Shown: positions 8,222-47,823 of the stretch, piece by piece
Layout of the letters: every line of letters begins with the position of its first letter
Position numbering within the stretch: position 1 is the stretch's first letter
NCBI GenBank assembly: GCA_013695435.1
Contig: JACDAM010000297.1
Coordinates: forward strand, 1-48,882
Direction: 5' to 3'
Length of the DNA: 48,882 nucleotides
DNA from: Burkholderiales bacterium
Lineage (GTDB): Bacteria > Pseudomonadota > Gammaproteobacteria > Burkholderiales > JACMKV01
The notes under the pieces: model-generated
Told to the model about the DNA's origin: nothing
Databases searched by the model: none
Seen by the model: only the letters and a program-made list of their open reading frames with translations
Position numbers and translations under genes: made by a program

Positions 8222-8241
8222 GCTTGCGACTGCTACCGCGC

Positions 8242-9194: not shown

Positions 9195-9197
9195 CCG

Positions 9198-13187: not shown

Positions 13188-13237
13188 TCAACTACCATGT
13201 TGCTCCGAATTTTTTACTCAAGCGGATAGCGCAACCA

Positions 13238-13990
13238 ATGCTTGAAAGAATCAAGGAGGAAATCGCCGTCGTGTTCGACCGCGACCCCGCAGCGCGCTCG
13301 ACGCTCGAAGTCATCACGTGCTATCCGGGCTTTCACGCGCTGCTCGTGCACCGCGTATCGAGCCGCCTTTGGCTCTGGAATTTCAAGTTGCTTGCGCGCT
13401 TCGTCTCGCATATCGGCCGCGCCCTGACAGGCATCGAAATCCATCCGGGGGCGCGTATCGGCCGGCGTTTTTTCATCGACCACGGTATGGGCGTGGTCAT
13501 AGGCGAGACTGCAGAGATCGGCGACGACTGCACGCTTTATCACGGCGTAACGCTTGGCGGCACATCGTGGAACAGTGGCAAGCGCCATCCAACGCTCGGC
13601 CGCGGCGTCGTCATCGGCGCCGGCGCCAAGGTGCTGGGTCCGATTTTGATTGGCGAAGGCGCCCGTATCGGGTCGAACGCGGTGGTGGTAAAACCGGTTC
13701 CGGCGCGCGCGACAGCAGTCGGCATACCGGCGCGTATCATCGATGACGAGCAGGATGCGATGCGCGCCAAATCCGCCGAGAATATGGGATTCTCGGCCTA
13801 TGCGATCAGCAAGGACGTGAACGATCCGCTGGCCAAGGCGATTCACGGCCTGCTCGATCACAGCGTCAGCACCGACGCCCGCCTCGAACGCATTCTGGCG
13901 CAGCTCGAACGTTTAGGCGTGACTGTGGAAGACGATCGCGCCGTAGCCGACAAATTCGATCCGAACTATCTGAACAAGATTGTGGACTGA
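13238..13990 (+). CDS. cysE: serine O-acetyltransferase
   Basis: [22 protein letters not shown]...[28 protein letters not shown] hexapeptide repeats. Confidence 0.9.
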
Positions 13991-14011
13991 GACAACTCTG
14001 AATCGAATGCC

Positions 14012-27729: not shown

Positions 27730-29070
27730 TTATGCGGAGCTTTCCGGATGCTGATCGCTGGCGTGCGGTTCGCCGCGCAACGGTAATTCGACGCGCGCTT
27801 CGAGTCCGCCGCCGGCGCGCGCCAGCAGTTTGACGCTGCCTTCGTGCAATCTGGCGATACGGTCGACGATGGCGAGCCCGAGTCCGCTGCCGCCGCCGCT
27901 GCGCGCGCTATCCATGCGCGTAAACGGCTGCAGCATGCGGCCTGTTTCGCACTCGGGAATGCCAAGGCCGCGATCGAGCACAGCCAGGACCGCGTTGTCG
28001 CGATTGACCGCGGTGCGGATTTCTATCGCGCCGCCGCCGTGACGCAGCGCATTCTCGACCAGGTTGACCAGCAGGCGCTGTATCGCGAGTGGCTTCAGAG
28101 CCAGCGGTGGCAGGTCCGCAAGGTCGAGCACCATGGGTTTACCGATGCGCGCGTAACGCTCGCGCACGGCGCGCACGATCGCGTTCAGGTCGCATTCGGC
28201 TTCTGTTTCTTCCGCATTGCCGCGTGCGAAAGCCAGAAATTGATCGATGATCGCGTCGATTTCGTCGATATCCTGTGCCATCCCGGTTTTCAGCGATTCG
28301 CTTTCGTTCAGCATCTCGAGTTCCAGCCGCAACCTCGATAGGGGCGTGCGCAAGTCATGCGACACGCCGGCCAGCAGCAGCGCGCGGTCGGCTTCGAGCC
28401 GTTTCAGATCGTCTGTCATTTGATTGAAGCCGCGGCTGACGGCGCGAATTTCGGTCGATCCGGTTTCGGGCAGCGCGGGCGGCAGTTCGCCCTTGCCGAT
28501 TCTGGCCGCGGCATCGGTAAGGCGGCGTAGCGGCCGGTTGATACGGGACACGATCAGATACGCGCCGAAAATCGAAAACAACAGCACCAGCGCACCCCAG
28601 CTCAGCCACTGGGTCGGAAAGGCGCGCTCGGTGCGCGCGCGCGACAACACGATCCAGTATTCATCGCCTTCGATGTTGAAGCTGACCCACAGCGTCGTAC
28701 CGTCGTCTTCGCGCTGCACCAGCACTTGCGTGTCCATGCCAAGCTCGCTGCCCACTGCGTTCGCAGTCAATTGCAGAAACCTGCTATTCGGTGGATTCAC
28801 CATTATCTCGGCTGGCAAGCCGGTGTAGACGCGTATGCCTTCGCGTTCGGAAAGATCGAGCAAAAGCTCGCGCCGCTTGGAAGGCTCGGCGGTCAGCAGC
28901 GCGGCCCGCGTCAGATTGACCGTGCTGACAACCTGCACGGCGAGCTGTCTGGCGCGCGGCTCGCGCTCGAACAATCGCAGCATCTGAAACCACGCGAGTT
29001 GGCTGACGGTCAACAGCAGCGCGATCAGCAAAACGGTCCGCGTGAGCAGCGACTGCGGCAGCAGATTCAT
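27730..29070 (-). CDS. envZ: EnvZ-like osmosensor histidine kinase
   Basis: Two TM segments, HAMP, H-box LLAGVSHDLRTPLSRL, N/G boxes (NLVENALRHG, DRGLGIP, GGSGLGLAIV). Start MNLLPQS at 29070, 13 nt after the ompR stop. Confidence 0.85.
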   Translation of the reverse strand: MNLLPQSLLTRTVLLIALLLTVSQLAWFQMLRLFEREPRARQLAVQVVSTVNLTRAALLTAEPSKRRELLLDLSEREGIRVYTGLPAEIMVNPPNSRFLQLTANAVGSELGMDTQVLVQREDDGTTLWVSFNIEGDEYWIVLSRARTERAFPTQWLSWGALVLLFSIFGAYLIVSRINRPLRRLTDAAARIGKGELPPALPETGSTEIRAVSRGFNQMTDDLKRLEADRALLLAGVSHDLRTPLSRLRLELEMLNESESLKTGMAQDIDEIDAIIDQFLAFARGNAEETEAECDLNAIVRAVRERYARIGKPMVLDLADLPPLALKPLAIQRLLVNLVENALRHGGGAIEIRTAVNRDNAVLAVLDRGLGIPECETGRMLQPFTRMDSARSGGGSGLGLAIVDRIARLHEGSVKLLARAGGGLEARVELPLRGEPHASDQHPESSA

Positions 29071-29083
29071 GAGCAACGCCGCG

Positions 29084-29806
29084 CTAGGCGCGCTGTTCGC
29101 CATCGGGAACGAAGACATACCCAAAGCCCCATACCGTCTGAATGGTGCGCGGCTTGGCGGGGTCGTCTTCGACCAGCCGGCGCAGGCGGGAAATCTGCAC
29201 GTCGATACTGCGGTCGAACGGCTCATGACCGCGGCCGCGCGAGAGCTCCATCAGCTTGTCTCTCGAAAGCGGAATGCGTGGATTGGCAAGCAGCGTCTTC
29301 AGCAGCGCGAACTCGCCGGTCGTCAGCGCCACGGCTTCGCCGTTTTTCGTCAGTGTGCGCAGGGCGAGATCGAGCGTCAGCGCGCCAAAGCTTATCGCTG
29401 CTTCATGCTGCTCAGGGGCGCCCGGTGGCGCGACGTGGCGGCGCAAGACTGCATGTATGCGCGCAACCAGCTCGCGTGGATTGAACGGCTTGGCCAGATA
29501 ATCGTCGGCGCCGAGTTCGAGACCGACGATGCGATCGACCTCGTCGCCCTTCGCGGTCAGCATGATGATGGGCAGCGTATTGCCCGCACCGCGCAGCCGT
29601 CTGCACAAGGTCAGGCCATCTTCGCCGGGCAGCATCAGATCGAGCACCAGCAAGTGGAAATGCTCGCGTGCGAGCGCTTTGTCGAGGCCGGCGCCGTCGC
29701 CGACGGACTGCACGTTGAAGCCCTGATCGGCGAGGTAGCGATTTAGCAGATCGCGCAGCTTGATATCGTCATCGACGACGATGATTTTCGGCTTGTCGGT
29801 TTTCAC
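29084..29806 (-). CDS. ompR: OmpR-family response regulator
   Basis: KIIVVDDD...LLVLDLMLPGEDG...MLTAKG receiver domain and winged-helix C-terminus (IQTVWGFGYVF). Confidence 0.92.
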   Translation of the reverse strand: MKTDKPKIIVVDDDIKLRDLLNRYLADQGFNVQSVGDGAGLDKALAREHFHLLVLDLMLPGEDGLTLCRRLRGAGNTLPIIMLTAKGDEVDRIVGLELGADDYLAKPFNPRELVARIHAVLRRHVAPPGAPEQHEAAISFGALTLDLALRTLTKNGEAVALTTGEFALLKTLLANPRIPLSRDKLMELSRGRGHEPFDRSIDVQISRLRRLVEDDPAKPRTIQTVWGFGYVFVPDGEQRA

Positions 29807-29995: not shown

Positions 29996-30313
29996 ATGAA
30001 ACGGATCATCGGTATTTCGGCGCTGGCGTTGAGTCTTTTCGCAGGATCCGCGTTCGCGGATGATGATGATCGCGGTTGGCGCGATGGGCCGCGTTTCAAG
30101 CATCATCAGCAACAAAACGAAAGACACCACTACGATAGGCAGCACTACAAACATCACTACAGGCATCGTGATAATCACGGTTATGATTACCGGCCGCGAG
30201 TCGAGCACCATCATTATTACCCGCGACCGCGCTATCATTCCCGGCACAGGGATTATGGGTATCGTGATAGCTATAATCAGCATTTCGACTTGTACTATCG
30301 GCTGCATTTCTAA
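29996..30313 (+). CDS. secreted His/Tyr/Arg-rich small protein
   Basis: 105 aa. Signal peptide MKRIIGISALALSLFAGSAFA, then DDDD. By my count the ~84-aa mature part has ~16 His, ~13 Tyr and ~15 Arg. SD agaaggag upstream. Confidence 0.6.
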   Translation: MKRIIGISALALSLFAGSAFADDDDRGWRDGPRFKHHQQQNERHHYDRQHYKHHYRHRDNHGYDYRPRVEHHHYYPRPRYHSRHRDYGYRDSYNQHFDLYYRLHF

Positions 30314-30337: not shown

Positions 30338-30625
30338 ATGAAAAATTTGCTGGGCATTTTTCTGGTAAGCGCGATCATTGCCGCGACGCCGGCATGGGCT
30401 GATCACGAGCGCCGCGGCGGCGGCCGCGACGAAGATTCGCGGCCAACACCCCAGAAAAATCGCTCAGCGGCCGATGATCCCCGTCGCGGCGGGCGCGAGC
30501 TGCGCGATGTACGCGAACGCGAGCCGCGTCCGCATGGGCGGTTGACGCGCGACGAGCGCGAAGCCCTGCACCGCGATCTCGACGAAATCGGACGCGATAT
30601 CTATCCGCGCGGAAGAGGACGTTAA
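30338..30625 (+). CDS. secreted Arg/Asp/Glu-rich small protein
   Basis: 95 aa. Signal peptide ...ATPAWA. Charged mature region with an LTRDEREALHRDLDEIGRDIY segment. SD aaggag. 24 nt after the previous gene. Confidence 0.55.
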   Translation: MKNLLGIFLVSAIIAATPAWADHERRGGGRDEDSRPTPQKNRSAADDPRRGGRELRDVREREPRPHGRLTRDEREALHRDLDEIGRDIYPRGRGR

Positions 30626-30822: not shown

Positions 30823-32200
30823 TCAATCTTGAGCCGAAGCGCCGGCAAGCGCGGCGTTCGATGACAGGTGACGGCGCCGACCCGTGACGCTTTTGCCGCC
30901 ACGTGCCGGTCTTTTGGTAATCATGGGCAACAACATCGCGACGAGCAGCATCAGGGCGATCGGCATTAGCGTTCCGCCGTATGATCCCGTCGTGTCCTTC
31001 ATATGGGCGGCAAATAGCGGCCCGACAATCCCGGCAAAACCCCATGCGCTGAGTATCATGCCGTAATTGGCGCCCATGCGGCGCGTACCGAAGTAATCGG
31101 CAGCGAACGACGGCATCGTGCCGAAACCGCCGCCGAAGCAGAGCAACACAACGGCGAATCCGATAGCAACCGACGTGAGGTCATGCAGCCCGCCGAGCAT
31201 GCCGAAGGCAATGGCCTGCAGGCTGAAAATCAGCGCGAAGGTTCGATTGCGTCCGATGCGGTCTGATATCGCGCCCCAGAAAAAACGGCCAAGCGCGTTG
31301 AACAATGCGACGAACCCGTAAGTCGCCGCGATCATGCCGGGAGCAAGTCCGGTCAATTCCTGCATGATGGGCACGGCATTGCTGATAATCAGGATGCCGG
31401 CAGTGACGTTCAGAAACAGCATCAGCCACAGCAGATAAAACTGCGGCGTGCGTAGCATCCGCGCCGTCGTATACGACCGGTTCCAGTTGAAGTCGGCGCC
31501 AACCGCTTCCGACTTCCGCCTGTATGCGGTCGGAGGGTTTTCCAGCATAAGGGCGCAGCTGCCGCCGATCAGTGCAAATGCGATCCCGGAAACGACGAAC
31601 ACGTTCATCAGCGCCGATACGTGTTCCTGCGCCAACGCAACTCCTGTCAAGCGCAGTGTTTCCGGCGCTGCTGCAAGCTCTGCCGCAGCCTGGGCGGCCG
31701 TCGCAAAGGACGGGATGTGTTGTAAGGTCAGGTTATAAACGACAGCGCCGAGACCAAAACCAGCGACGACCAAGGCCGCTGCCCAAACCGCGCTTGTCCG
31801 GGAACCATTTGGTGATGACCGTAACCGGTGTGACATATCCCATGCCGACGCCGAAGCCACCGATTACGCCATAGCTCAGATACATCCACCAGGCGCCGAA
31901 ATGCGCGGAGCCCAATCCTGCGAGACAGTTGCCGAGCGCCTATAGCATAACGCCTGTAAAGGCGACCTTACGCGGGCCGATCTTGTCGTGCCAGCGGCCT
32001 CCGACCATGGCGCCGAAGCTCAATGAAAAAAACGCCAGCGCGAAAGTCCATGTCGTCGTCATGTTCGACCAGCCGAAACCCCCGCTTAAAGGCTGGGTGA
32101 ACAGGCTCCACGAATAGATCGTGCCGAGCGTCATCATGGTAACCATGCCGCTCGCTGCGATGACCCAGCGGTTCCTTGCCGAAGCTGCCTTGCTTTGCAT
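30823..32200 (-). pseudogene. MFS transporter, oxalate/formate antiporter (OFA)-like, disrupted (in-frame TAG and 1 frameshift)
   Basis: MQSKAASARNRWVIAASGMV...GRWHDKIGPRKVAFTGVML, then TAG at 31940-31942, then in the same frame ALGNCLAGLGSAHFGAWWMYLSYGVIGGFGVGMGYVTPVTVITKWFPDKRGL. A frame change near the ccc run at about 31782-31784 leads to AAALVVAGFGLGAVVYN... through to 30823. Confidence 0.75.
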
Positions 32201-32472
32201 TTTGTCTCTCTCCCGGTGAATGCGCAGCCTGATCCGCAAGCGGCATGCCAAGGGCACGCAGAGATTACGAACAAGCATCGTTTTCCGGCGCCCGCACCAC
32301 GGGTTTGCGGGGTGCAGCGACGGATCACAGGGTCCGCAGACCCGCCGGCATCGCGGCAGCGCGCAAGAAATTTCAACACCCTTAACAGCGCCCCGCAATT
32401 TCCAGCCGGTGTGGTCCGCCACGTCGATTGCGCTGTTCAACGGTAAGATGCGGTTCTCGACATGGGAACCGC

Positions 32473-33489
32473 ATGCGTTATCTGAAACTGGTTTTTCTCA
32501 CGCTCGGGCTGCTGCTGCTCGGACTTGTTGTGCGCGACCTGAATGTGGACGAAGTGTTCGCGCAGATCGCCGAGGTCGGCGTCATTGGCATGACGTTCGT
32601 CGTGCTGTTTTATGCCCCGGTTTTCGCGGCCGATGCCGCGGGCTGGCAACTGATCCTGACGAGCGTGCCGCGCGATTTACGCTGGCTGGCGCGCCTGTTC
32701 AACATCCGGCTTGCGGGCGAGGCTTTCAACACGGTCACGCCGCTCGGTTCGATGGGGGGCGAGCCGCTGAAGGCGCTGCTGCTGAAATCGCGCTACGGCA
32801 TCGGCTATCGCGAATCCAGCGTTTCGCTGATCCTCGCCAAGACCATCATTCTGATCGCGCTGGTGCTGTTTCTCACCATCGGATTCTTGCTGCTGTTGCC
32901 TTCCGGGCGCGTGAGTTCAGCGTACAAGTTCATCGCCGGGGCCGGCCTCATCGCGCTGACGCTCAGCATCGCGGGGTGTTTCGTGATCCAGCGCCTGCGC
33001 CTGAGTTCGCGCCTGGGTTCATGGCTGGGCCGCATATTCGGTGCGCGCGTTACCGGGCGTCTGCAACGCCTGATCCTTTTGATTCACGATATCGATGAAC
33101 GCCTCGTTCATTTTTACACCGAACATCGCGCGCGTTCCGTGGCGGCATTCCTGCTCGCGCTGCTCAGCTGGATCGGCGGCGTGATCGAGGTTTATGTCGT
33201 CATGTGGCTGCTTGGTTATCCGGTAACGTTCAATGAGGCGTGGATCATTGAAGCGCTGGTTCAACTGGTGCGCGCCGGCACCTTCTTCATCCCGGCAAGC
33301 ATAGGCGCGCAGGAAGGAACACTGGTGATGGTCTGCTCGGCGATGACCGGGAATCCGGCTGTCGGCTTGGCGCTGTCGGTGATTCGCCGTGTGCGCGAGG
33401 TGGTCTGGATCGCCGCGGGGATCGCGGTGTGGTGGATTTATTCGCTGAATCGAACCAATCCAAAAGAATCGGAACGCGAAGTCGTGTGA
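32473..33489 (+). CDS. UPF0104 / lysyl-phosphatidylglycerol-synthase-TM-region (MprF flippase-like) membrane protein
   Basis: About 338 aa and polytopic. RLAGEAFNTVTPLGSMGGEPLKALLL and FIPASIGAQEG motifs are characteristic of this family. Convergent with the phosphonate operon. Confidence 0.75.
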   Translation: MRYLKLVFLTLGLLLLGLVVRDLNVDEVFAQIAEVGVIGMTFVVLFYAPVFAADAAGWQLILTSVPRDLRWLARLFNIRLAGEAFNTVTPLGSMGGEPLKALLLKSRYGIGYRESSVSLILAKTIILIALVLFLTIGFLLLLPSGRVSSAYKFIAGAGLIALTLSIAGCFVIQRLRLSSRLGSWLGRIFGARVTGRLQRLILLIHDIDERLVHFYTEHRARSVAAFLLALLSWIGGVIEVYVVMWLLGYPVTFNEAWIIEALVQLVRAGTFFIPASIGAQEGTLVMVCSAMTGNPAVGLALSVIRRVREVVWIAAGIAVWWIYSLNRTNPKESEREVV

Positions 33490-33606
33490 TGCAGCACGGC
33501 GCGATGCGCGCTCGAATCGTTCAGATCGTTTTGTCGCCCCTCGTTTTCGAGGAGGTGCGACGCGGCGGGCAGTGGCCGGTCGCCGTTTCGATAATTCAAT
33601 ACAGGT

Positions 33607-34200
33607 TCATTCCGCCCGCCGCAACTGCAAGAACTGCCAGCCGACGATCACTGCCGCAAGCGGTGCGCCGACCGCGGCGGCTGTCAAAAAAGCCATCAGC
33701 CCGTCGAGCAGCGTGACCACCGGCAGCAGATAAAGAATATCCTCGGCTTCGAGTCCGCCGAAGCGTGGCTGACGCGTCGCTGTCTTGCCGTGGCGATTTT
33801 CGATTTCGTTGCGCATGTAAAAAATCGCCGACACTGCGGCACCGGCGACGATGCCGGCCGGCAATACCCACGCGCCGGCGCCTGACCGCATCAGCCCGAT
33901 CGCAATGCTTATGAACAGCAACACATGGAGCAGCGCGTCGCTCGCGAGATCGTAAATATGCCCGGTTCGGCTCATCTTGCCGGTCAGTCTTGCCAACTCA
34001 CCGTCGGTATGGTCGAGCAGATTCGATGCCGCGAACAAAAGCGCGCCGAGAGCAGCCAATCCTCCCGTTGCAAAAGCAGCGATCGCGGCAAGCCCGACAA
34101 CGAGCCTGAGTGTTGTCAGGTGATTCGGCGTGACCCACGTTCCGGAGAGCGGACGCACCATCCACAGCGCAAAACGGGCGTCCCAGGGTTTGCTGTTCAT
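33607..34200 (-). CDS. CDP-alcohol phosphatidyltransferase family protein
   Basis: 197 aa and multi-TM. Perfect signature DGELAR-LTGKMSRT-G-HIY-D-LAS-D (DGx2ARx8Gx3Dx3D). ATGA overlap with the upstream transaminase gene. Confidence 0.85.
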   Translation of the reverse strand: MNSKPWDARFALWMVRPLSGTWVTPNHLTTLRLVVGLAAIAAFATGGLAALGALLFAASNLLDHTDGELARLTGKMSRTGHIYDLASDALLHVLLFISIAIGLMRSGAGAWVLPAGIVAGAAVSAIFYMRNEIENRHGKTATRQPRFGGLEAEDILYLLPVVTLLDGLMAFLTAAAVGAPLAAVIVGWQFLQLRRAE

Positions 34201-35288
34201 GCGCCTGCCATTCCCGCAACTTGCCTGACCGCATCAAGCAGGCGCTCGACATCGCTTTCGCCGATTTCGCCCATCGTCGAAATGCGGAACAGGGTTTTTG
34301 CCAGCGCCGCCTGGCCGGCATAGATCACGAAGCCGCGCTGTTTGAGGCCGTCGTGCAGCGCGGTGTAATCGACGCCGCGCGGCAGAGTGAATGCGTTCAG
34401 CACGACCGAGGCTTCATCCTGCGGCAGCAGCGGTTCGATGGAAAGCGCCAAGAGGCCTTCGCGTACGCGGCCGAGCAAAGCCGCATAACATTCGCGGCGC
34501 TTTTGCCAGCCGCCTTGTTCATCGAATTCGACGAGCGCTTCGCGCAGCGCATAAAACGCCGGGATCGCAGGTGTGAACGGCGTGCTCGCCGCATCCTGCT
34601 CGCGACAATGCGTCGCGAGGTCGAGATACAGACTGCGCCGCGCGGCGGCGGGGAGGGCGGCGCGCTTGACGACGACGAACGATGCGCCAGGCGCTCCGTG
34701 CAGGCATTTGTTCGCGGTAGCTGCGCAAGCCGTTATGCCTAACGCATCGAAATCAATCTCCTCCGCCCCGAAGCTGCTGACAGCGTCGACAAGCAGCGCG
34801 ACGGCGCGCGACTTGCACAGCGCTCCGATTTCATCCAGACGATTGAGCCTGCCCGTCGTCGTCTCGTGATGGACGATGGCGATGTGCGTAATCCGCCGAT
34901 TTTCCGCAACAGCGGCTTCGATACACGCTTCGATGCGATCGACATCAAGCGGCGCCAGCCATGGGTGTTGCAGCGAGACGTGATCCAGATGGTAAACCCT
35001 GGCCATCGCGCTCATGCGCTCACCATAAACGCCGTTTTCGAGAATCAGCAAGCGGCCGTTTTCGGGAACGAGACTGCTGATCATGGCTTCGACGGCGGCG
35101 GTGCCTGAGCCTGTGAGCAGGACCGCGGCCCATTGCGCGGGCGCGAGATCGTAGACCCGCAATAGCCGGGCGCGAATGTCCTGCTGAAGCACGGCGAATT
35201 CTGGCTCGCGATGACAAAGGTCAGGACTGGTCAGCGCGTTTCTGACGCGCTGACCGAGATTGACGGGACCGGGGTTGAGCAGAATCAC
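34197..35288 (-). CDS. aepZ: 2-aminoethylphosphonate:pyruvate aminotransferase (AEP transaminase, PhnW/AepZ-like)
   Basis: MILLNPGPVNL...class V aminotransferase. PLP lysine in ATANKCLHGAPG. Position after ppd. Confidence 0.85.
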   Translation of the reverse strand: MILLNPGPVNLGQRVRNALTSPDLCHREPEFAVLQQDIRARLLRVYDLAPAQWAAVLLTGSGTAAVEAMISSLVPENGRLLILENGVYGERMSAMARVYHLDHVSLQHPWLAPLDVDRIEACIEAAVAENRRITHIAIVHHETTTGRLNRLDEIGALCKSRAVALLVDAVSSFGAEEIDFDALGITACAATANKCLHGAPGASFVVVKRAALPAAARRSLYLDLATHCREQDAASTPFTPAIPAFYALREALVEFDEQGGWQKRRECYAALLGRVREGLLALSIEPLLPQDEASVVLNAFTLPRGVDYTALHDGLKQRGFVIYAGQAALAKTLFRISTMGEIGESDVERLLDAVRQVAGMAGA

Positions 35289-35307
35289 GATGGCTTTGTC
35301 GATGAAT

Positions 35308-36468
35308 TCAGTGTGTCGATGAAAAGCTGCTTCCGATATGTTTCATCAGGCGCTCCAGAACTTCTGCCGGCGATAGGCCTGGCCGCGGCAACTGGTTCAG
35401 AGTGCCGGTGCGAATCTTTAAATGCGCGAAGTGCGGCCGCTTGCTGGCCGGCGCTGCGAACAATTCATCTATCAACTCGACGCCATCGCCGCCCAGCGCA
35501 ATGCCGTAACCGCATGCCGCGGCAATTGCGGCAAAAGATATGTTGCCGGAGACGGTAGCCTGGCCGCCGGTCGAATCGTGTGCTTCGTTGTCGAGCACGA
35601 AATGGATCAGATTGCCGCCGCCATACGCGCCGATGGTCGCAAGATTGCCCATACGCATCAGCGCGGCGCCGTCGCCGTCGATGACGACGATCCTGAGATC
35701 GGGGCGGGCAAGCGACAAACCCAGCGCGATCGATGACGCGCAGCCCATAGAGCCGACGATGTAGAGATGGTTCGCGCGATCGGCGAGCGCGTACAACTCG
35801 CGCCCGGTGTAGCCGGTGGTGGCGATGACAACGCTGCCAGTTTCGGGTGTGTGCTGCAGCACACACTGCAAAACCTGACTGCGCGAGACGCGTTGCGCGC
35901 CGCGCATGTTTTCCATGCAGGATACGTTTGTCGACGTACGCGGGACCTGCTGATGTTCGAGTGCGTGCGGCGCGACGCTGCCTTTGGCCATGACGAGCGC
36001 ATAGGGGCGATGCTCGCGCTCCATGTAGTCGCTCGCGCGTTTCAGCGCCGCGGCGATCCCGCCGGGTTCGGTTGGGAAGGCTTCCCATGGCACTTGCATG
36101 GTGTCGAACAGGTCCCCAGTAATGCGGCCCATCAGTTCGTGTTGCGGTTCGTCGTGCACTTCGGGCGCGCCGCGGTGGGTGCAAATCAGCAGCAGCGGAA
36201 TGCGGAACACCCAGGTCAGCGAGGTCAACGGGCTGACCGCATTGCCGAGACCGGAATTCTGGATCATGACGACGGCGCGCTGCCCGCCGATGGCCGCGCC
36301 GGCGGCAGCGGCAATGGCGTCGCCCTCGTTAGCCGATGAAATATAGGTAAGCCTGGGATCGCCGATCACGTAATTGATGAACGGCGTCAGAAACGAGCAC
36401 GGGACGCCCGCATACCACGCGAAACCGCGGCCGCGCGCGGCTTCGACAAAATCCTTTGCTTCAATCAT
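35308..36468 (-). CDS. aepY: phosphonopyruvate decarboxylase (Ppd/AepY)
   Basis: 386 aa. FAWYAGVPCSFLTPFINY N-terminus typical of Ppd. TPP motif VIDGDGAALMRMGNL...VLDNE. Confidence 0.88.
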   Translation of the reverse strand: MIEAKDFVEAARGRGFAWYAGVPCSFLTPFINYVIGDPRLTYISSANEGDAIAAAAGAAIGGQRAVVMIQNSGLGNAVSPLTSLTWVFRIPLLLICTHRGAPEVHDEPQHELMGRITGDLFDTMQVPWEAFPTEPGGIAAALKRASDYMEREHRPYALVMAKGSVAPHALEHQQVPRTSTNVSCMENMRGAQRVSRSQVLQCVLQHTPETGSVVIATTGYTGRELYALADRANHLYIVGSMGCASSIALGLSLARPDLRIVVIDGDGAALMRMGNLATIGAYGGGNLIHFVLDNEAHDSTGGQATVSGNISFAAIAAACGYGIALGGDGVELIDELFAAPASKRPHFAHLKIRTGTLNQLPRPGLSPAEVLERLMKHIGSSFSSTH

Positions 36469-36563
36469 CGCTTATGCACCTGAAGAGATATCTGGATGAC
36501 CTCTGACCCGTTCGCACCGAGCTCGCCGAAGGGTGAAGCTCAAGCCCATGGATCGCGTGGGAT

Positions 36564-38237
36564 CTATCCGCGCCCCTGCGCGAAATCGCCGGCATTATCC
36601 AGATCTTCTAGCGCGTTCACGTCGAGCCAGTGGCCGTGGATATACAGCACCCGGATCGGATGGCCGTTGGCGACGATCCGATTGAGCAGCGTGCGCATCG
36701 ACAACTGCGCGAAATCATCGCGCAGCTCCAGTTCCGCAAGCGCTTCGAGCAACCATTGTCGTCCCGCGCCGCGCACGCGCAGCATGCCGATCCAGCGTCC
36801 GTTCGCCTCTCCCAATTCGCCGTCTCTATCGGGTGAAATGGCGAACAGTTGCACGTTTTGCGCGAGCATGGCGCGATTGTCGGCTGCTGTGCAGTAAGCG
36901 TAATCGGGCGCCCCGGTGGCGGGCCGTCCGGCGCTCGCCGCTTCGCCGAAAGCGGAATCGACGATGACCACCAGTTCTTCTTCGCTGTCGAGCAAATCGC
37001 GCAGAATGTAGCCGCGAAACAGCAGATCGCCGTACAGGATGACATTGTCGCTGTCAGTTTCGAGCCACGGTTGCGCGCACACCAGCGAGGCCAGCTCGCC
37101 GGTCCGCGCATGTTCGCGATTGATCACGAGATTGATGCCGGTCACGTCGATCGAATCGGCGCGATAACCGGCGACGACGGTGATGTCGTTGATGCCCTGT
37201 TTCTTCAGTTCATCGACTTGCCGGCGCAGGATCGGCTTGCCTGCGATCGGCAGCATAACCTTGGGCCGCGTCTCGGTCAGGGTATGCAGTTCCTGGCCGC
37301 GGCTTGCCGCAAGAATCACGGCGCGGGTTTCCACGCGGTCGCGGCCGATGTAGCGCCGCTCGGCTGCCGCCAGTTCGGCCGCTCCCTGCAAGCGGAAAAT
37401 TTCCTCGACCGGGGCGATGCGGTCTTCGACCTCGACCAGGGATTGCGCGTCGTGCACGGCTCGCGCGACGTTTTGCATCGCGTCGACCGCGGCGCGCACC
37501 ATATGATTCGCCCAGATCACGAGGCTGACTCGGGCCTGGCGGTAGACGTCGGTGGGCGTGCTGTAGTATTTGGTCGGCACGATCACGAGCGGCGCGCGCT
37601 GCGCCCATTCTTTTGCGAACGCAACGATCTCGTCGGCGCGCGCCAGCTTGCTGTGGATCAGGATCGCATCGGCCCCGGCTTCGCGATACGCCGCGGCGCG
37701 TTTCAGCGCCTCGGCCATGCCCCAGCCGGCGATCAGCGCTTCGACGCGCGCGATCACGCAAAAATCAGCGTCGCTCTGGCAGTCCTTGCCGGCCTTGATC
37801 TTGCCGCAGAATTCATCGGCCGTCGCCAGCGGTTGGCGCTCGCCGGAAAGAAAGCTGTTGGTTTTCGGAAACAACTTGTCTTCGATGCAGACGCCGGCTA
37901 TGCCGCGCTGCTCGAGTTTTTTGATCAGCCGGCGCAGATTGTTGAAGTTGCCGTAGCCGGTATCACCATCGAGCAGGATCGGTATCTCTGTTGCGTCCGA
38001 CATGAATTCGAGCATGTCGACGATTTGCGTCCAGCTCGCCTCATTACTGTCGCGCACGCCGAATTGCGCCGACAGCGCGAGACCGCTGGCCCAGATTCCG
38101 GCGAACCCAGCTTCCTGCACGATGCGCGCGCTGACGCCATTGTGCGCCTCCATGATGAATTCAATCCCGGCGGAGTTCAGCAGTCGGCGCAGTTGGGCCG
38201 GCCGGGACAGATGGCCGACGATCTCCGGTTTATTCAT
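36564..38237 (-). CDS. aepX: phosphoenolpyruvate phosphomutase fused to a C-terminal nucleotidyltransferase domain (PepM::PntC-like)
   Basis: 557 aa. The N-terminal isocitrate-lyase/PEP-mutase fold carries the diagnostic [10 protein letters not shown] (EDKx5NS) motif. The C-terminal half [32 protein letters not shown]...VVAGYRAD is an NTP-transferase fold. Confidence 0.9.
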
Positions 38238-38979
38238 ATGTCATGATCCGTGGCAGGATTTCGCGCTCGGCGCGTTCGACGTCGTCGGGAAAATCGATTT
38301 CGATCCACGGCAGTCCGGTGATGTCCTCGAAACCGAACGCTTGCGGCTGCGCGAACAGCAGATCGCGGATCGCGTCTTCGAACGGTGCATCTTCACATCC
38401 GGCCGCAGCGTAGCGTTCGGTGCATTCCGCCAGCGCAGCCGCTGTCTCGGCCGCGAAGCGAAAAAAGCCGACCGATTCGCCGGCAAAATCACAGGCGATG
38501 TCGGCTCGCGGCTGTTTGCTGAATTCGACCGGCTGTCCTTCGCGCACGCACAGCTTGACGGGCTCGTCGCCGGGCTCGAAATTGCGATCGATCAGGAAAC
38601 AATTGGCGATGGGCGTATCGGCGAGCCGTTGCAGAATCGGCAAAGCATAGAGCACATCGGCATCCATCAGCAGGATGTCTTCGCCCTGGCGCAATTCGGC
38701 CGCCGCCGCTTTCAGGCTCAAAACGCTGCCGCGCTGATATTCGAGATTCACAACAAGGCGTATCGATAAAGAAAGCCCGCCCGCTGGTAACGCCGCCAGC
38801 GCCGCCCGAACGACGTCTGCCTGATACCCGATAACCAGCACCACCTCGCCGACGCCAACCCGCTGCAGCGATGCGATATGACGTTCGATCAGCGTTTTAC
38901 CGGCAAAGCGCAGCAGGCTTTTCGGGTAATCCAGACCGAGCCTTTCGCCCACGCCCGCGGCCATGATGATCGCTTTCAT
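38230..38979 (-). CDS. stand-alone sugar-phosphate/phosphobase nucleotidyltransferase (LicC-like fold)
   Basis: 249 aa. [15 protein letters not shown] (GxGxR) motif. 8-nt overlap with the downstream PEP mutase gene. Confidence 0.8.
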
Positions 38980-39018
38980 TGCCGGGTTTTCATCGCGGCT
39001 AGAGCAAGGTCCTTGCCA

Positions 39019-39718
39019 TCAGGCGCCTTTGCGTCGTTGAAAAACGCTGCCCAGACCAAAATACGCGATCGAGTCCTTCATGTTGGAAACGAAGCGCCAC
39101 CATGGCGACATGCCCGGATCGGTTACGTATTCCAGCGTGAGCACGACGCGCTGCTGATTGGCGCCGATCGGCGTCAGGCGGTGATGCAGCTTGTCGCCGA
39201 ACAGCACGAGCATGCCGGGCGCGGTCGCGAGCTGTCGCGTCTTGCCCGCGTTTTCCGCCCCCCGCGGCTGCTGGCAGCCGGTATTCGAGCCTGCTGTCCG
39301 AGCGATCGACAAGTCCGATCAGCACGGAGAAACGCTTGCCCTGGTAATACGAGCTGTCGTAGTGCCAGCCGATGTGATCGCCTTCTTCTGTGTAGTAATA
39401 CAGCGCATAGGTATGCGGATCGGCGGGCGGACACGGCAGGAGCTTGCGACCGGTGATCCGATCCAGATATTCCGCGAGCGCCGGCTGGCGATACAGCTCG
39501 CCGAACGATGGCGCCAGCCGATCGAGTTCGAAGCGGCTGATGCTGCCGCCTTTTTTATGTCTGGGAATGTAATTGCGATGAACCGCCGATTCGAGCCGCG
39601 GCAGTTCGGCCAGCAGGCGCTGCAACAGCGGCGCCGGCACAAAATCGGGCACGACAAGAAAGTCGCCTTGCGATCGAAACGACTCCGCGAGTTTCAAGAT
39701 ATCGATATCGGCGAACAT
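39019..39718 (-). pseudogene. 2OG-Fe(II) oxygenase (prolyl-4-hydroxylase-like), frameshifted in a C6/G6 run
   Basis: The N-terminal frame has GDHIGWHYDSSYY (HxD). After the run at 39258-39263 the protein continues in another frame: ENAGKTRQLATAPGMLVLFGDKLHHRLTP...RVVLTLEY (distal His and Arg). First gene of the phosphonate operon. Confidence 0.65.
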
Positions 39719-40438: not shown

Positions 40439-40738
40439 ATGCTCAAATTATCCCGAATGGCAATGATGTCGGCCGTGATTGCATCGTCGCTGGTCGGCGC
40501 TTCGATCGCCACCGCCCAGGACGTGATGTTCGCCACCGGCGGTTACGCGCGCGGCGGCAAGGGCTTGCGCACGATGAAAGTGATGAAAGCGATGGACAAG
40601 GACGCCGACCATTTCGTGACGATGGACGAGTTCATGGCGATGAACGAAACGGTTTTCAAAAAGATGGATAAAAACAGCGACGGCAAAATCAGCGTCGAGG
40701 AATGGCTCGACAAGCAGCGTAAATCGGACGGCGGCTAA
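40439..40738 (+). CDS. periplasmic EF-hand calcium-binding protein
   Basis: Signal peptide and two EF loops: DKDADHFVTMDE and the canonical DKNSDGKISVEE. Confidence 0.75.
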   Translation: MLKLSRMAMMSAVIASSLVGASIATAQDVMFATGGYARGGKGLRTMKVMKAMDKDADHFVTMDEFMAMNETVFKKMDKNSDGKISVEEWLDKQRKSDGG

Positions 40739-45487: not shown

Positions 45488-45782
45488 TGTTCGACTCCGC
45501 GGGCGAGCTAGCTGATTATGATGCTCTTTACGACGCTGGCGAGTGTCCTCCACAGTACATAGGCCACATCGAAAATAATAGCTGTTATTCCCGCGTGGAT
45601 TCAACGCGAGGCAGCAGGCTGCGGAGAAATTCCGAACCTTCAAAGCAAACGGGTTCCCTTGGCCGCCCTGTGATGAAACTTTTAACTCGTCGCGAGATTT
45701 GCGTGATTTTCGCTGCGCACACTCGCATCACAGATCGGCGACGCCGTCTGTTCTTCCCTCAAACCACGGAAAGGAATTCGTC

Positions 45783-46070
45783 ATGAACCAATCAGATCGC
45801 ATCATCCGCTCTGCAATCGCCAGCTTGCTCGCGCTGGGTGTCGTCGGCAATGCCGGGCACGCCGTGGCCGCCAAAGGCGACAACGAAAAATGCGCGGGCA
45901 TCGTCAAGGCCGGCAAGAACGACTGCGGTACCAGCTACAGCTCGTGCGCCGGATCGGCCAAGGTCGATAACGACAAGGAAGCCTGGGTTTATCTCCCCAA
46001 AGGCACGTGCGAAAAAATCGTCGGCGCGAGCATCACGACTTCCGCGCATGCGAAGCCCGGCGGTAAGTAA
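45783..46070 (+). CDS. bufA: DUF2282-family RiPP precursor (BufA1/GigA-like bufferin precursor)
   Basis: 95 aa. Sec signal peptide ...GHAVAA. Mature region has 4 Cys in the family pattern EKCAGIVKAGKNDCGT..SSCAGSAK...PKGTCEKI. Followed by DUF692 and DUF2063 genes. Confidence 0.8.
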   Translation: MNQSDRIIRSAIASLLALGVVGNAGHAVAAKGDNEKCAGIVKAGKNDCGTSYSSCAGSAKVDNDKEAWVYLPKGTCEKIVGASITTSAHAKPGGK

Positions 46071-46120
46071 GGCGCGCAGCAACGCTACCCATCGCCAGGT
46101 AGTGCGACGTGCTTAGGTCG

Positions 46121-46167
46121 TCACCCCCATCCCGGCCTTCCCCCGTCCAGGGGGAAGGAGTACAGCG
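46121..46167 (+). repeat. REP-like hairpin element, copy 3 (between bufA and bufB)
   Basis: cacccccatcccggccttcccccgtccagggggaagg. Perfect 9-bp stem 46136-46144/46150-46158 with a 5-nt loop. Same orientation and family as copy 1. Confidence 0.6.
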
Positions 46168-46222
46168 TTTCCGCGTCGAGCTAGAAGGGGTATCGCGCTC
46201 CGCCGTCGGGTGGGAAGGGGTA

Positions 46223-47062
46223 ATGCATTCGACCAGCAACGGGATTCCCCCGCGCGCCGGGATTGGGTTGCGCGCACCGCATTACCGCGAATTGCTCGAA
46301 CGTCTGCCCGATATCGGCTGGCTCGAAGTCCACAGTGAAAACTATTTCGGCGGCGGCCAGCCGCTGCATTTTCTCGAACGCGCGCGCCGGCATTATCCAC
46401 TGAGCTTGCACGGCGTCGGTCTGTCGCTCGGTTCGACCGACAAGTTGTCGCACGAACATTTGAACCTGCTCAAATGGCTGATCGTGCGTATCGAGCCGGC
46501 GATGGTTTCCGAGCATCTGTGCTGGGGCTCGATCGGCGGGCGTCATCTGAACGACCTGCTGCCTTTGCCGTACACCGAAGAAGCGCTCGCTCTGGTCTGC
46601 TCGCACGTTGGCGAAACGCAGGATTTTCTGGCGCGCCAAATCTTTGTCGAAAACGTTTCGAGCTATTTGCAGTTCACGCATTCGACCTTGCCGGAATGGG
46701 AGTTCGTGCGCGAAGTCGCGGCGCGCACCGACTGCGGCATTTTGCTCGACGTCAACAACATCTATGTGAATTCGATCAATCATGGTTTCGACGCGTCGCG
46801 TTATCTGCGCGGCATTCCGCGCGCGGTCGTCGGCGAGATCCATCTGGCCGGCTTCGATGCCGGAGCCGATTGCCTGATCGATACACACGCGAAGCCGGTC
46901 GCCGATGCCGTGTGGTCGCTGTATCGGGAAGCGGTCGCACGCTTCGGACCGACGCCGACCTTGATCGAATGGGATGCCGATATTCCCGCGCTCGACGTGC
47001 TGCTCGCGGAAGCGCGCAAAGCGGATTCATCAATGGAGGCGCGCTATGCACTCGCTTCGTGA
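46223..47062 (+). CDS. bufB: DUF692-family multinuclear non-heme iron oxidase (MNIO, BufB/MbnB-like)
   Basis: 279 aa from the ATG at 46223. The ORF-track start at 46109 reads through the REP element. GIGLRAPHY...WLEVHSENYF...LSLHGVGLSLGS...EHLCW...LLDVNNIYVN...IHLAG motifs of UPF0276/DUF692. Confidence 0.88.
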   Translation: MHSTSNGIPPRAGIGLRAPHYRELLERLPDIGWLEVHSENYFGGGQPLHFLERARRHYPLSLHGVGLSLGSTDKLSHEHLNLLKWLIVRIEPAMVSEHLCWGSIGGRHLNDLLPLPYTEEALALVCSHVGETQDFLARQIFVENVSSYLQFTHSTLPEWEFVREVAARTDCGILLDVNNIYVNSINHGFDASRYLRGIPRAVVGEIHLAGFDAGADCLIDTHAKPVADAVWSLYREAVARFGPTPTLIEWDADIPALDVLLAEARKADSSMEARYALAS

Positions 47063-47823
47063 TCAGCAGCGCACATTCGCCGCCAGCCTGCTGGCGTCCG
47101 CGCATTGCGACGCCATCCTCGCCCGCCCGGGCATGGACGCGGACGCGCGGCTCGGCATCTATCGCAACAACGTATTCAGCAATTATCGCGAGGCGCTGCG
47201 CGCGGTTTATCCGGTCATCGAGCGCCTCGTCGGCAGCGAGTTCTTCCGCCATGCGGCCAATCGCTTCATCGCAACGCACGAATCGGTGAACGGCTACCTG
47301 CATCGTTTCGGCGAAGGCTTCGCCGATTTCCTGCAAGGTTTTCCGGGCGCCGAACACCTCGTTTTCCTGAGCGATACCGCGCATCTGGAATGGCTGATTC
47401 ACGAATCGTTTCATGCCGCGGACCATGCGCCGTTAGCGCTGCGGCGCCTGGCGGAAATCGGCCCGGGAGCAGTACGGCGCCCTGCGCTTCGAGATGCATC
47501 CGGCTTGCCGCCTGTTCGCATCGCCGTATCCGGTGCATCGCATCTGGCAGACAAATCAGCCGGAAGAACGCGGTGACGACCACGTCGATCTGGCCAGCGG
47601 CGGTGTCACGCTGCTGGTGCACCGCCGCGATTTCACTGTGGCGCTCGAACCGCTGGAAAAAAACGATTTCGCGTTGCTCAGCCTGATCGCCGCCGGGCAG
47701 CGTCTTGTGCTCGCCTGCGACCACGTGCTGCAAAGCGAGCCGGCATTTGACGCTGCGGTGTTTTTGCAGCGGCGCGTAATGGATGGGACGTTGGTGGATT
47801 TTCGCGTAGCGGGTTTTCGTTAA
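47046..47823 (+). pseudogene. bufC: DUF2063-family partner protein (BufC-like), frameshifted
   Basis: MHSLRDQQRTFAASLL...LGIYRNNVFSNYREALRAVYPVIERLVG (the DUF2063 signature). A 1-nt frame change at the G-run near 47465-47467 leads to EQYGALRFEMHPACRLFASPYPVHRIW... ending at 47823. Confidence 0.75.

Follow-up and report, generated by a model that had tools for sequence, protein, structure and literature searches.

The window, a 48,882-nucleotide stretch of a Burkholderiales contig, carries a seven-gene cluster for the synthesis of 2-aminoethylphosphonate (AEP) and its activation with CMP. The cluster probably attaches AEP to a membrane lipid and is best explained as a set of genes for the biosynthesis of a membrane lipid whose head group is a phosphonate; CMP-AEP-dependent phosphonylation of such a lipid is, with some reserve, the function to be expected of it. 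Diacylglycerol specifically is a more tentative proposal for the acceptor, and the neighbourhoods of related clusters point to hopanoids at least as strongly. This hopanoid link is what the comparison adds to the published predictions.

The cluster type has already been named, as the ‘Group 1 phosphonolipid’ pepM neighbourhoods (Yu et al. 2013) and as the ‘Burkholderiales_CDP-OH’ gene cluster families (Li and Horsman 2022, PMC8942020), and the same cluster has been drawn for a lichen Nostoc (Gagunashvili and Andresson 2018, PMC5987646). The phosphonolipid idea, put forward in an earlier sequence-only reading of this DNA, is thus not new, since both the seven-gene core and a diacylglycerol-based pathway are in print as predictions; the core has been predicted repeatedly and never characterised. 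As of 2022 the lipid-transfer step was undemonstrated, in agreement with the sequence-only reading, and no phosphonolipid had been isolated from any bearer of the cluster type (Li and Horsman 2022, PMC8942020). No later characterisation was found in the literature searched.

Table 1 Features of the phosphonate cluster, with positions in the window
Feature	Position	Strand	Family match or predicted role
UPF0104 / LPG_synthase_TM membrane protein, stand-alone, HpnL-like	32473..33489	+	PF03706 match; candidate translocator of lipid product
CDP-alcohol phosphotransferase, 197 aa, final operon gene	33607..34200	-	PF01066
2-Aminoethylphosphonate:pyruvate aminotransferase (AEPT)	34197..35288	-	TIGR03301; phosphonoacetaldehyde to AEP
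Phosphonopyruvate decarboxylase (Ppd)	35308..36468	-	TIGR03297; phosphonopyruvate to phosphonoacetaldehyde
PEP mutase-nucleotidyltransferase fusion, 557 aa	36564..38237	-	TIGR02320 + PF12804
PEP mutase (PepM) domain, about residues 1-297 of fusion	37347..38237	-	TIGR02320; PEP to phosphonopyruvate
LicC/PntC-type nucleotidyltransferase (NT) domain, about residues 298-557 of fusion	36564..37346	-	PF12804; predicted phosphonate cytidylyltransferase
PntC-like nucleotidyltransferase NT2, stand-alone, second cytidylyltransferase	38230..38979	-	PF12804 (NTP_transf_3)
HalD/BesD-family 2OG-Fe(II) oxygenase, HxD (hydroxylase) type, pseudogene	39028..39718	-	two-frame match to orthologue

Predicted synthesis and activation of 2-aminoethylphosphonate

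All seven genes were read where the sequence-only reading had placed them, six on the minus strand with the UPF0104 gene convergent to them, and the curated models agree with its assignments, the intactness of the oxygenase aside. Both overlaps that it described are present in the letters: ATGA at 34197-34200, between AEPT and the transferase start, and the 8-nt ATGAATAA at 38230-38237, between NT2 and the PepM start.

In profile searches the three enzymes of AEP synthesis all exceed their curated cut-offs. The PepM domain, in which the 10-residue motif noted in the sequence-only reading is present, matches TIGR02320 over residues 16-286 with 396.6 bits (cut-off 319.55), Ppd matches TIGR03297 with 439.7 bits (cut-off 312.5) and AEPT matches TIGR03301 (PhnW-AepZ) with 385.8 bits (cut-off 360.8). 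On these equivalog-level assignments the PepM domain would convert PEP to phosphonopyruvate, which Ppd would decarboxylate, pulling the unfavourable equilibrium, and AEPT would transaminate the resulting phosphonoacetaldehyde to AEP.

Activation is predicted by homology to characterised enzymes, with one or both of the LicC/PntC-type nucleotidyltransferases forming CMP-AEP from CTP and AEP. CMP-AEP has been shown to be the product of PntC enzymes, and PntC-type domains occur as fusions in about 60% of Ppm proteins (Rice et al. 2019, PMC6697681). The fused NT domain matches PF12804 (NTP_transf_3) over residues 306-427 with 54.4 bits, and among solved structures it is closest to LicC (1jyk, E 1.1e-12), with PntC (6pd1) at E 8e-6. 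NT2 matches PF12804 with 60.1 bits and can be aligned from end to end (2-247) with Treponema denticola PntC (6pd1) and with the IPCT domain (2xme/4mnd). Both domains share the fold of LicC and of the characterised PntC proteins Tde1415 and Ari1348 (Rice et al. 2019, PMC6697681), although their identity to these is low (E 4e-6 to 1e-12) and this cluster has two paralogues, 29% identical to each other, whereas the characterised systems have one.

The transferase and its UPF0104 partner

The CDP-alcohol phosphotransferase matches PF01066 (CDP-OH_P_transf) with 52.2 bits (cut-off 22) and has a perfect superfamily signature, D63x2D66G67x2A70R71x8G80x3D84x3D88, which is invariant in 15 homologues. 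Its AF2 model (pLDDT 88.3, pTM 0.83) consists of an N-terminal helix and six TM helices, and the best Foldseek matches to this model are AF2299 (TMq 0.79), IPCT-DIPPS and PIPS. AF2299 and IPCT-DIPPS also lead the profile comparison. Judged by family chemistry and gene context, the transferase would join the hydroxyl of a membrane-embedded alcohol to the phosphonate phosphorus of CMP-AEP, releasing CMP and leaving R-O-P(O)(O-)-CH2CH2NH3+. This proposal is of the same reaction type as the ciliate (Tetrahymena) route, in which CMP-AEP and diacylglycerol give a phosphonolipid. Every family assignment in the cluster is compatible with the order of steps given by the sequence-only reading, from PEP through phosphonopyruvate, phosphonoacetaldehyde, AEP and CMP-AEP to transfer.

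The eukaryotic Kennedy-type enzymes CEPT1 and CHPT1 share the superfamily signature and the proposed type of reaction, in which a lipid alcohol receives a CMP-activated head group and CMP is released. They differ in size, with about 10 TM helices and 380-400 aa against six and 197 aa in the window transferase, and match it weakly (profile E 6e-4, Foldseek E 7.5e-3), and the identity of their acceptor is not transferable to it. AF2299 (4o6m), the DIPPS of Archaeoglobus IPCT-DIPPS (PDB 4mnd) and PIPS, the nearest solved relatives, use soluble phospho-alcohol acceptors or CDP-diacylglycerol donors, while the analogous reaction of a CDP-alcohol with diacylglycerol belongs to the more distant CEPT1/CHPT1; both observations count against lipid phosphonylation. 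Since NT2 aligns with the IPCT domain, NT2 and the transferase resemble a split unit that activates with CTP and then transfers; however, the substrates of DIPPS are soluble inositol phosphates, the identity is about 20%, and cytidylyltransferase and transferase are encoded separately in the window, four genes apart.

The UPF0104 gene lies 117 nt from the transferase stop. Its product matches PF03706 (LPG_synthase_TM) with 99.5 bits (cut-off 33.4) and the flippase-like model TIGR00374 with 59.9 bits (cut-off 43.2). The PF03706 match, which spans almost the whole protein, bears out the earlier comparison with the flippase domain of MprF at the level of the profile, whereas a sequence search found no solved structure by which the fold itself could be compared. 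MprF differs in having a C-terminal aminoacyl-PG synthase domain. UPF0104 relatives also sit at the hpnL position of hopanoid clusters, yet the score against TIGR03476 (HpnL) is 144.5 bits, below the cut-off of 195.65. By family chemistry and context this MprF-N-terminal-like protein would shift the zwitterionic lipid to the outer leaflet.

The pairing of the two genes, noted in the sequence-only reading, is conserved in several lineages. Orthologues of the UPF0104 protein adjoin the transferase in 13 loci (L001, L016, L066, L077, L081, L082, L084, L085, L087, L092 and L094-L096), and in several proteobacterial lineages they remain beside it where the other cluster genes are rearranged. In L092 the two form an operon with an MsbA-like ABC exporter, without the other cluster genes. 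Such a pattern fits a lipid product that needs to be moved. The Nostocales loci lack the UPF0104 gene, so not every cluster requires it.

The 2OG-Fe oxygenase

The sequence-only reading missed a lesion in the oxygenase gene and gave the enzyme no role. The ORF at 38999-39718 belongs to a pseudogene, in which a run of six Gs (G6, 39258-39263) carries a +1 frameshift. Roughly residues 1-150 match the family in the frame 39754-39275, and the reading frame is a different one for the C-terminal third, which includes the distal His (DKLHHRLTP) and is encoded at 39255-39028; the intact L066 orthologue aligns with the two through aa 2-167 and aa 173-249, respectively. Intact 232-aa orthologues (P0121, P0122) are 89% identical to a G5 reconstruction. 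An independent, 99.8%-identical assembly (L093) shares both the G6 run and the 239-aa product.

The intact enzyme is predicted in the literature to make 1-hydroxy-AEP by C1 hydroxylation of AEP, and in intact relatives this HalD-family 2OG/Fe hydroxylase would convert the head group accordingly. Five Nostocales loci carry an unrelated PhnY*-like dioxygenase in its place, which supports a role for it in phosphonate hydroxylation. Given the frameshift, the head group in the window organism should be plain AEP.

Nature of the acceptor

Diacylglycerol, the acceptor that the sequence-only reading named as an example, is a published prediction made by analogy with the Kennedy pathway, and the neighbourhoods of the relatives favour hopanoids at least as strongly. 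The same chemistry could attach (hydroxy)AEP to bacteriohopanetetrol or one of its derivatives through a hydroxyl of the side chain, with the UPF0104/HpnL-like protein flipping and HpnN exporting a phosphono-hopanoid in place of a glycerolipid, a possibility that we rate as somewhat unlikely. Hopanoid genes adjoin or enclose the transferase in several arrangements (hpnG-hpnN-X-hpnA, hpnL-like, hpnH, hpnI/K, shc), and hpn genes lie near it in eight of 15 lineages (clusters at 80% identity, over the available flank). In gammaproteobacterial lineages the transferase is the X of hpnG(PNP_UDP_1)-hpnN-X-hpnA, with start/stop overlaps, HpnN there scoring 1000 bits against TIGR03480 (cut-off 752) and HpnA 519 bits against TIGR03466 (cut-off 368). 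The entire phosphonate module lies between SQS_PSY/HpnG/HpnN/HpnA and dxs/HpnH(rSAM+DUF3463)/GT2/MlaC-like genes in L087, L094, L095 and L096, three of these four loci having been reached through PepM and chosen solely by sequence length. The Mycetohabitans cluster abuts dxs, an MMPL transporter, ispH, hpnH, hpnA, shc and hpnD, and the transferase of 14 Nostocales loci is immediately preceded, on its own strand, by hpnI (338 bits, cut-off 310) and/or hpnK (288 bits, cut-off 233). The UPF0104 partner is moreover a relative of HpnL, which like HpnA is without an assigned function in the literature; a survey of Acetobacteraceae linked terpenoid genes to PepM, and a survey of hopanoids found PEP phosphomutase among the functions correlated with SHC. 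These neighbourhoods suggest that the acceptor may be a bacteriohopanepolyol instead of diacylglycerol.

However, the window contains no hpn gene, none occurs within 15-20 kb in its sister MAGs (L001, L085), Burkholderia cenocepacia or Cupriavidus, and co-location could stem from co-regulated envelope remodelling or shared export, without a covalent link. Extensive lipidomics of BHPs has yielded no report of a hopanoid that contains phosphorus; this is absence of evidence, since a lipid of that kind could escape the derivatisation and APCI methods in common use.

A non-lipid product, in which CMP-AEP decorates a glycan or forms a soluble phosphonodiester comparable to di-inositol phosphate and the membrane proteins serve export, is improbable. 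Most characterised bacterial AEP is on glycans, as in Bacteroides fragilis PS B (Rice et al. 2019, PMC6697681), and DIPPS is a 6-TM enzyme with two soluble substrates whose fusion with IPCT the NT2-transferase pair resembles; yet ORF and profile annotation of the core found no glycosyltransferase, LicD-type transferase or polysaccharide export gene, and the partners that are conserved (UPF0104, HpnN and, in L092, the MsbA-like exporter) relate to lipids. A reversed polarity is more improbable still: CDP-diacylglycerol as donor to the C1 hydroxyl of 1-hydroxy-2-AEP, giving phosphatidyl-hydroxyAEP with a free phosphonate in the manner of PgsA, PssA or PIPS, would explain the hydroxylase in the conserved core and suits the phosphate-bearing alcohol acceptors of the closest characterised relatives by profile and fold (archaetidylinositol-phosphate synthase, PIPS, DIPPS), but it leaves two cytidylyltransferases, conserved in every cluster, without a role, several Nostocales clusters retain the transferase with no oxygenase or mere remnants of one, and the window combines a dead oxygenase with an intact transferase in an otherwise intact operon.

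Distribution of the cluster

The same gene set recurs in varied order in B. cenocepacia, Cupriavidus, Mycetohabitans, gammaproteobacterial MAGs and Nostocales. [quoted passage not shown] The Burkholderiaceae order, on one strand, is transferase, oxygenase, UPF0104, NT, PepM, Ppd and AEPT, whereas in the window the transferase comes last, after AEPT, and UPF0104 is convergent.

Several close homologues of the transferase have no PepM within 10 kb, an observation that counts against lipid phosphonylation.

Compared with the B. cenocepacia and Cupriavidus clusters, the window PepM is 63% and the transferase 51-53% identical, and the window UPF0104 protein is only about 29% identical to that of Burkholderia. 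Among the transferases, those of the gammaproteobacterial MAGs and Nostoc (55-67%) resemble that of the window more closely than the Burkholderia one does.

The cluster and its known relatives

The phosphonate cluster is a member of a known, uncharacterised kind, here rearranged and without a working hydroxylase. Its six minus-strand ORFs and one convergent plus-strand ORF are present where the sequence-only reading had placed them, and profile-HMM searches score the PEP mutase (PepM), phosphonopyruvate decarboxylase (Ppd), 2-aminoethylphosphonate (AEP) transaminase (AEPT), CDP-alcohol phosphotransferase (the transferase) and UPF0104 protein above the cut-offs of their models. Both overlaps are seen in the sequence, ATGA at 34197-34200 and ATGAATAA at 38230-38237, and the proposed UPF0104 start, the ATG at 32473, agrees with the HpnL profile, which begins at residue 16 of the longest ORF. 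The observation as a whole is confirmed with one correction, which concerns the oxygenase, and its interpretation is in part supported. A catabolic role in PhnW-type AEP degradation is ruled out by the presence of PepM and Ppd and by a transaminase whose best score is to the biosynthetic PhnW-AepZ model. Scanning the cluster for promoters and terminators gave no transcript-end signal exceeding the shuffled expectation, an Rfam scan found no regulatory RNA near it, the sole match being the SRP RNA at the window edge, and no record of the window's own PepM fusion protein was found in the assembly index.

Features of the window, with profile matches where available
Feature	Position	Strand	Evidence
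Small SRP RNA, 3' part	1-85	+	RF00169 53.5 bits
EnvZ/OmpR-like two-component pair	27730-29806	-	
His/Tyr/Arg/Asp-rich signal-peptide protein	29996-30313	+	
Arg/Asp/Glu-rich signal-peptide protein	30338-30625	+	
MFS transporter pseudogene	30823-32250	-	
LPG_synthase_TM protein (UPF0104)	32473-33489	+	PF03706 99.5 bits (cut-off 33.4)
CDP-alcohol phosphotransferase	33607-34200	-	PF01066 52.2 bits (cut-off 22)
AEP aminotransferase (AEPT)	34197-35288	-	TIGR03301 385.8 bits (cut-off 360.8)
Phosphonopyruvate decarboxylase (Ppd)	35308-36468	-	TIGR03297 439.7 bits (cut-off 312.5)
PEP mutase fused to nucleotidyltransferase	36564-38237	-	TIGR02320 396.6 bits (cut-off 319.55); EDKxxxxxNS motif; PF12804 (NTP_transf_3) residues 306-427
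NTP_transf_3 protein (NT2)	38230-38979	-	PF12804 60.1 bits
2OG-Fe oxygenase, frameshifted ORF	38999-39718	-	
EF-hand protein	40439-40738	+	
123-aa ORF, DUF692 protein, DUF2063 protein	45699-47576	+	DUF692 360 bits

Among the pepM neighbourhoods of sequenced bacteria such clusters form the most abundant class, the 'Burkholderiales_CDP-OH' group, which accounts for 318 of 882 (36%) and for which 1-hydroxy-AEP is the predicted head group; a phosphonolipid has been characterised from none of the groups surveyed (Li and Horsman 2022; PMC8942020). The same survey equates this class with what Yu et al. (2013) named Group 1 phosphonolipids. The same cluster, including hpnL, has been drawn for a lichen Nostoc, with a pathway via CMP and diacylglycerol adapted from Yu et al. 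(Gagunashvili and Andresson 2018; PMC5987646). Experimental characterisation of this cluster type was not found in the literature searched to mid-2026. The phosphonolipid hypothesis put forward from the sequence is therefore sound but not novel, as it arrives independently at a prediction already in print.

The canonical core, with all genes on one strand in the order transferase, oxygenase, UPF0104, nucleotidyltransferase, PepM-nucleotidyltransferase fusion, Ppd and AEPT, was confirmed in B. cenocepacia, Cupriavidus sp. P-10 and Mycetohabitans rhizoxinica, and the pair of transferase and LPG_synthase_TM protein is also found in these cores. The window has the PepM fusion of Group 1 or Burkholderiales_CDP-OH clusters, adjacent Ppd and AEPT genes, a second stand-alone PntC-type nucleotidyltransferase (NT2) and the 'phospholipid biosynthesis' pair as PF01066 and PF03706 proteins, both over the gathering score, but lacks their functional 2OG/Fe(II) oxygenase.

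The broken oxygenase

The oxygenase ORF described from the sequence is present and orthologous, but it is frameshifted rather than intact, and its family match is confined to the first ~150 residues. The C-terminal third, including LVLFGDKLHHRLTP with the distal iron-binding His, lies in a different frame (ORF 39019-39312). Against the intact orthologue of the gammaproteobacterial locus L066, to which the oxygenase is 58% identical, residues 2-167 correspond to 39754-39275 and residues 173-249 to 39255-39028, and a run of six G (39258-39263, coding strand) lies between the two pieces. When one G is removed from this run, the resulting 232-aa oxygenase shares 89% identity along its entire length with two intact database proteins of 232 aa (P0121 and P0122).

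Over 6.17 kb the window and a metagenome assembly of separate origin (L093, ENA ERZ27252430) share 99.82% identity and differ by 8 mismatches and 3 gaps; L093 contains the same G6 run and, save one residue, the same 239-aa frameshifted product. The shared run rules out a sequencing error as the sole cause of the frameshift, and because L093 carries both run and product the lesion appears to be inherited in the population. There is a small chance that a systematic homopolymer error common to both assemblies lies behind the run; the gene is most probably a genuine pseudogene.

The WHYD motif read from the sequence is H-x-D, as in hydroxylases, and not H-x-G/A, which rules out a halogenase reading of the match to the HalD/BesD family. 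In five Nostocales loci (L038 at 10624-11385, L051, L065, L070 and L073) an unrelated, non-orthologous PhnY*-like dioxygenase takes the position of the HalD-family gene between transferase and NT2; its score of 208 bits for methylphosphonate hydroxylase is under the cut-off of that model. This replacement supports phosphonate hydroxylation as the role of the cluster oxygenase. In further Nostocales loci the oxygenase is absent or reduced to remnants, and together with the window pseudogene they show that the hydroxylation step is optional. The window is a natural variant in which the hydroxylase is dead and the rest of the operon intact, which shows hydroxylation to be dispensable and predicts un-hydroxylated AEP as the head group in the source organism.

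The transferase, the nucleotidyltransferases and the UPF0104 protein

The 197-aa transferase carries the complete CDP-alcohol phosphotransferase signature (D63-x2-D66-G67-x2-A70-R71-x8-G80-x3-D84-x3-D88), which is located on TM2-TM3 and whose eight residues are invariant among 15 homologues. Its AF2 model (pLDDT 88.3, pTM 0.83) has an N-terminal interfacial helix and the six TM helices of the core fold. In Foldseek searches AF2299 is the best match (TMq 0.79, E 3e-6), with further matches to IPCT-DIPPS, PIPS and PgsA1 and weaker ones to CEPT1 and CHPT1, and a profile search ranks the relatives in the same way. None of the equivalog models was reached, the best being archaetidylinositol-phosphate synthase with 54 bits (cut-off 180). 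The donor and acceptor of the transferase are beyond what homology can tell.

Alignments of NT2 to 6pd1 (PntC domain) and to IPCT extend over its full length; NT2 is 29% identical to the fused nucleotidyltransferase domain, the closest relative of which is LicC. NT2 and the transferase look like a split version of IPCT-DIPPS. PntC enzymes make CMP-AEP and owe their preference for AEP over phosphocholine to a steric gate, and fused nucleotidyltransferases are found on ~60% of PEP mutase (Ppm) proteins (Rice et al. 2019; PMC6697681).

The UPF0104 protein is linked to the MprF-type flippase domain by PF03706, which covers residues 24-325 of the 353-aa ORF (E 3e-28), and also matches TIGR00374 with 59.9 bits (cut-off 43.2). 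The kinship with the MprF flippase domain stated in the sequence-only reading is one at the level of the Pfam profile, and a sequence search of solved structures gave no match. Lipid translocation is predicted from family and context. On the HpnL model TIGR03476 the protein scores 144.5 bits, below the cut-off of 195.65, and the 48.9-kb window contains no hopanoid (hpn) gene, although UPF0104 orthologues of L066, L087 and L094-L096 do sit in hpn clusters.

Neighbourhood comparison bears out the transferase and its flippase-like partner as a real and recurring pair in Proteobacteria, though not a universal one. The two genes are adjacent and convergent in the window lineage, UPF0104 lies near the transferase and convergent after hpnA in gammaproteobacterial loci (L016, L066, L077, L087 and L094-L096), and in Burkholderiaceae it is located within the operon. 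In L086 it is found four genes upstream of the transferase, and in L092 the operon consists of UPF0104, transferase and an MsbA-like ABC exporter. No UPF0104 gene was found by the family HMM within 10 kb in the Nostocales loci.

Association with hopanoid genes

The link to hopanoid genes is the unexpected result of the comparison. In Chromatiales-like MAGs hpnN (1000 bits, cut-off 752) and hpnA (519 bits, cut-off 368) lie on either side of the transferase, which is translationally coupled between them and is followed by the UPF0104 gene and the phosphonate genes. The phosphonate module lies inside a hopanoid cluster in all four of L087 and L094-L096, the last three being PepM-anchored loci selected solely for long contigs (SQS_PSY > HpnG-like > HpnN > transferase > HpnA-like < UPF0104 > oxygenase > NT > PepM-NT > Ppd > AEPT < dxs > HpnH-like (rSAM + DUF3463) > GT2 > MlaC-like > MlaA; hpnN is missing from L094). 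The Mycetohabitans cluster adjoins dxs, an MMPL transporter, ispH, hpnH, hpnA, shc and hpnD (RefSeq annotation). In 14 Nostocales loci hpnI and/or hpnK (over their cut-offs) are directly upstream of the transferase on the same strand, and one Nostocales locus has hpnH and hpnA downstream as well.

When transferases are grouped into lineages at 80% identity, 8 of the 15 have hopanoid genes in the flank examined, 9 have PepM and 9 UPF0104. The arrangement hpnN-transferase-hpnA is kept in L002, L086, L089 and L091, where PepM is not found within 10 kb, and hopanoid genes are not found near the cluster in the window lineage, B. cenocepacia and Cupriavidus. The only literature pointers found to a phosphonate-hopanoid link were a single sentence raising the possibility of a 'terpene-phosphonate' in an Acetobacteraceae survey and a table entry, undiscussed there, in a hopanoid survey that correlates PEP phosphomutase with SHC. 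In two recent hopanoid surveys hpnA and hpnL are without established function.

Several neighbouring genes were seen in these loci. In several unrelated lineages (Mycetohabitans and gammaproteobacterial contigs) a dxs (DXP synthase) gene directly follows AEPT, as in L016 (18589), L082 (22362-24266), L087 (18308-20203) and L094-L096, and this second dxs copy seems to be tied to the hopanoid and phosphonate supercluster. L089, which has hpnG-hpnN-transferase-hpnA and no PepM, encodes a carbamoyltransferase with small SxtJ-like and DUF5989 genes after hpnA (11641-14072, minus strand), which may be a further set for hopanoid side-chain tailoring. In 45 of 65 Nostocales loci (e.g. L007 at 7829-9496, L005, L009 and L010) the transferase is preceded by a 555-aa B12-binding radical SAM/DUF4070 protein, whose best NCBIfam match is weak, to the PhpK P-methyltransferase family, with HpnJ and HpnR far under cut-off; it could be HpnP-like or else a phosphonate-modifying methyltransferase.

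Proposed pathway and acceptor

By family assignment, PEP would be converted via phosphonopyruvate and phosphonoacetaldehyde to AEP, and the PntC/LicC-type domains would, like their characterised homologues, form CMP-AEP from CTP and AEP. Family chemistry and context suggest that the transferase would then move the aminoethylphosphonyl group onto a membrane alcohol with release of CMP, and that the product would be translocated by UPF0104. This lipid-phosphonylation scheme is considered probable. The identity of the acceptor is a more tentative matter, for which diacylglycerol and a bacteriohopanepolyol are both possible candidates and nearly level, diacylglycerol being slightly ahead.

A hopanoid acceptor would give the transferase subfamily and its HpnL-like partner a role in hopanoid tailoring, in which AEP or its 1-hydroxy form is placed on the side chain of bacteriohopanetetrol to give undetected phosphono-hopanoids, and the window cluster would represent a relocated copy, now away from the hpn genes. 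This reading, which is less likely than not, would if true amount to a new lipid class, provide a first function for the long-orphaned hpnL and perhaps hpnA, explain why phosphonate genes are nested within hopanoid clusters and add a new family of geochemical biomarkers.

The remaining weight is spread over other lipid alcohols such as ceramide, a glycan or soluble product, reversed polarity, or none of these. With reversed polarity CDP-DAG would be the donor and hydroxyAEP the acceptor, against which stand the optional hydroxylation in the Nostocales loci and the window and the two conserved cytidylyltransferases that would be left jobless. In L086 (1-4943) an AMP-binding (acyl-ACP-synthetase-like) enzyme, an SDR/epimerase, an acyl carrier protein and a class I/II aminotransferase (Spt-like) are encoded directly upstream of UPF0104 and of the operon that holds the transferase with hpn genes, with no PepM within 10 kb; this set looks like an amino-lipid or sphingolipid-type module.

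Carriers of this cluster type range from Burkholderia pathogens and fungal endosymbionts to lichen Nostoc and soil methanotroph-like Gammaproteobacteria, yet no one has so far observed its product. Because a head group with a C-P bond would withstand phospholipases and phosphatases, it could be important for persistence within hosts and for the cycling of phosphorus.

Surroundings of the cluster

The window comes from the chromosome of an uncultured Burkholderiales member, and the cluster is flanked by housekeeping and regulatory genes. Its nearest named relative, 'Burkholderiales bacterium JTS-RE189' (L001), has a transferase that is 86% and a UPF0104 protein that is 87% identical, in the same AEPT > transferase < UPF0104 layout, and a 3-kb contig (L085, GCA_030154765.1) is 99.9% identical to the window. 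Beside UPF0104 lies the MFS transporter pseudogene (lactate or oxalate/formate type), which is interrupted by an in-frame stop after ...FTGVML and, further on, by a frameshift; it is missing from the same position in L001 and fragmented in L085 too.

The SRP RNA, of the bacterial small type, is truncated by the window edge and lies upstream of dnaX. The EnvZ/OmpR-like pair adjoins the two small signal-peptide proteins, the first of which is extremely rich in the residues listed in the table; neither has a Pfam or NCBIfam match, and both could be periplasmic metal-binding proteins. Beyond the operon, a secreted-looking ORF is followed by a DUF692 protein of the MbnB/TglH/ChrH family and a DUF2063 protein, a layout typical for RiPP-like or metal-binding peptide loci. 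The EF-hand protein upstream of the operon has 99 aa and is called in L093 (246-544) as two genes of 51 and 47 aa, so this gene must contain one or more of the three indels that separate the window from L093.
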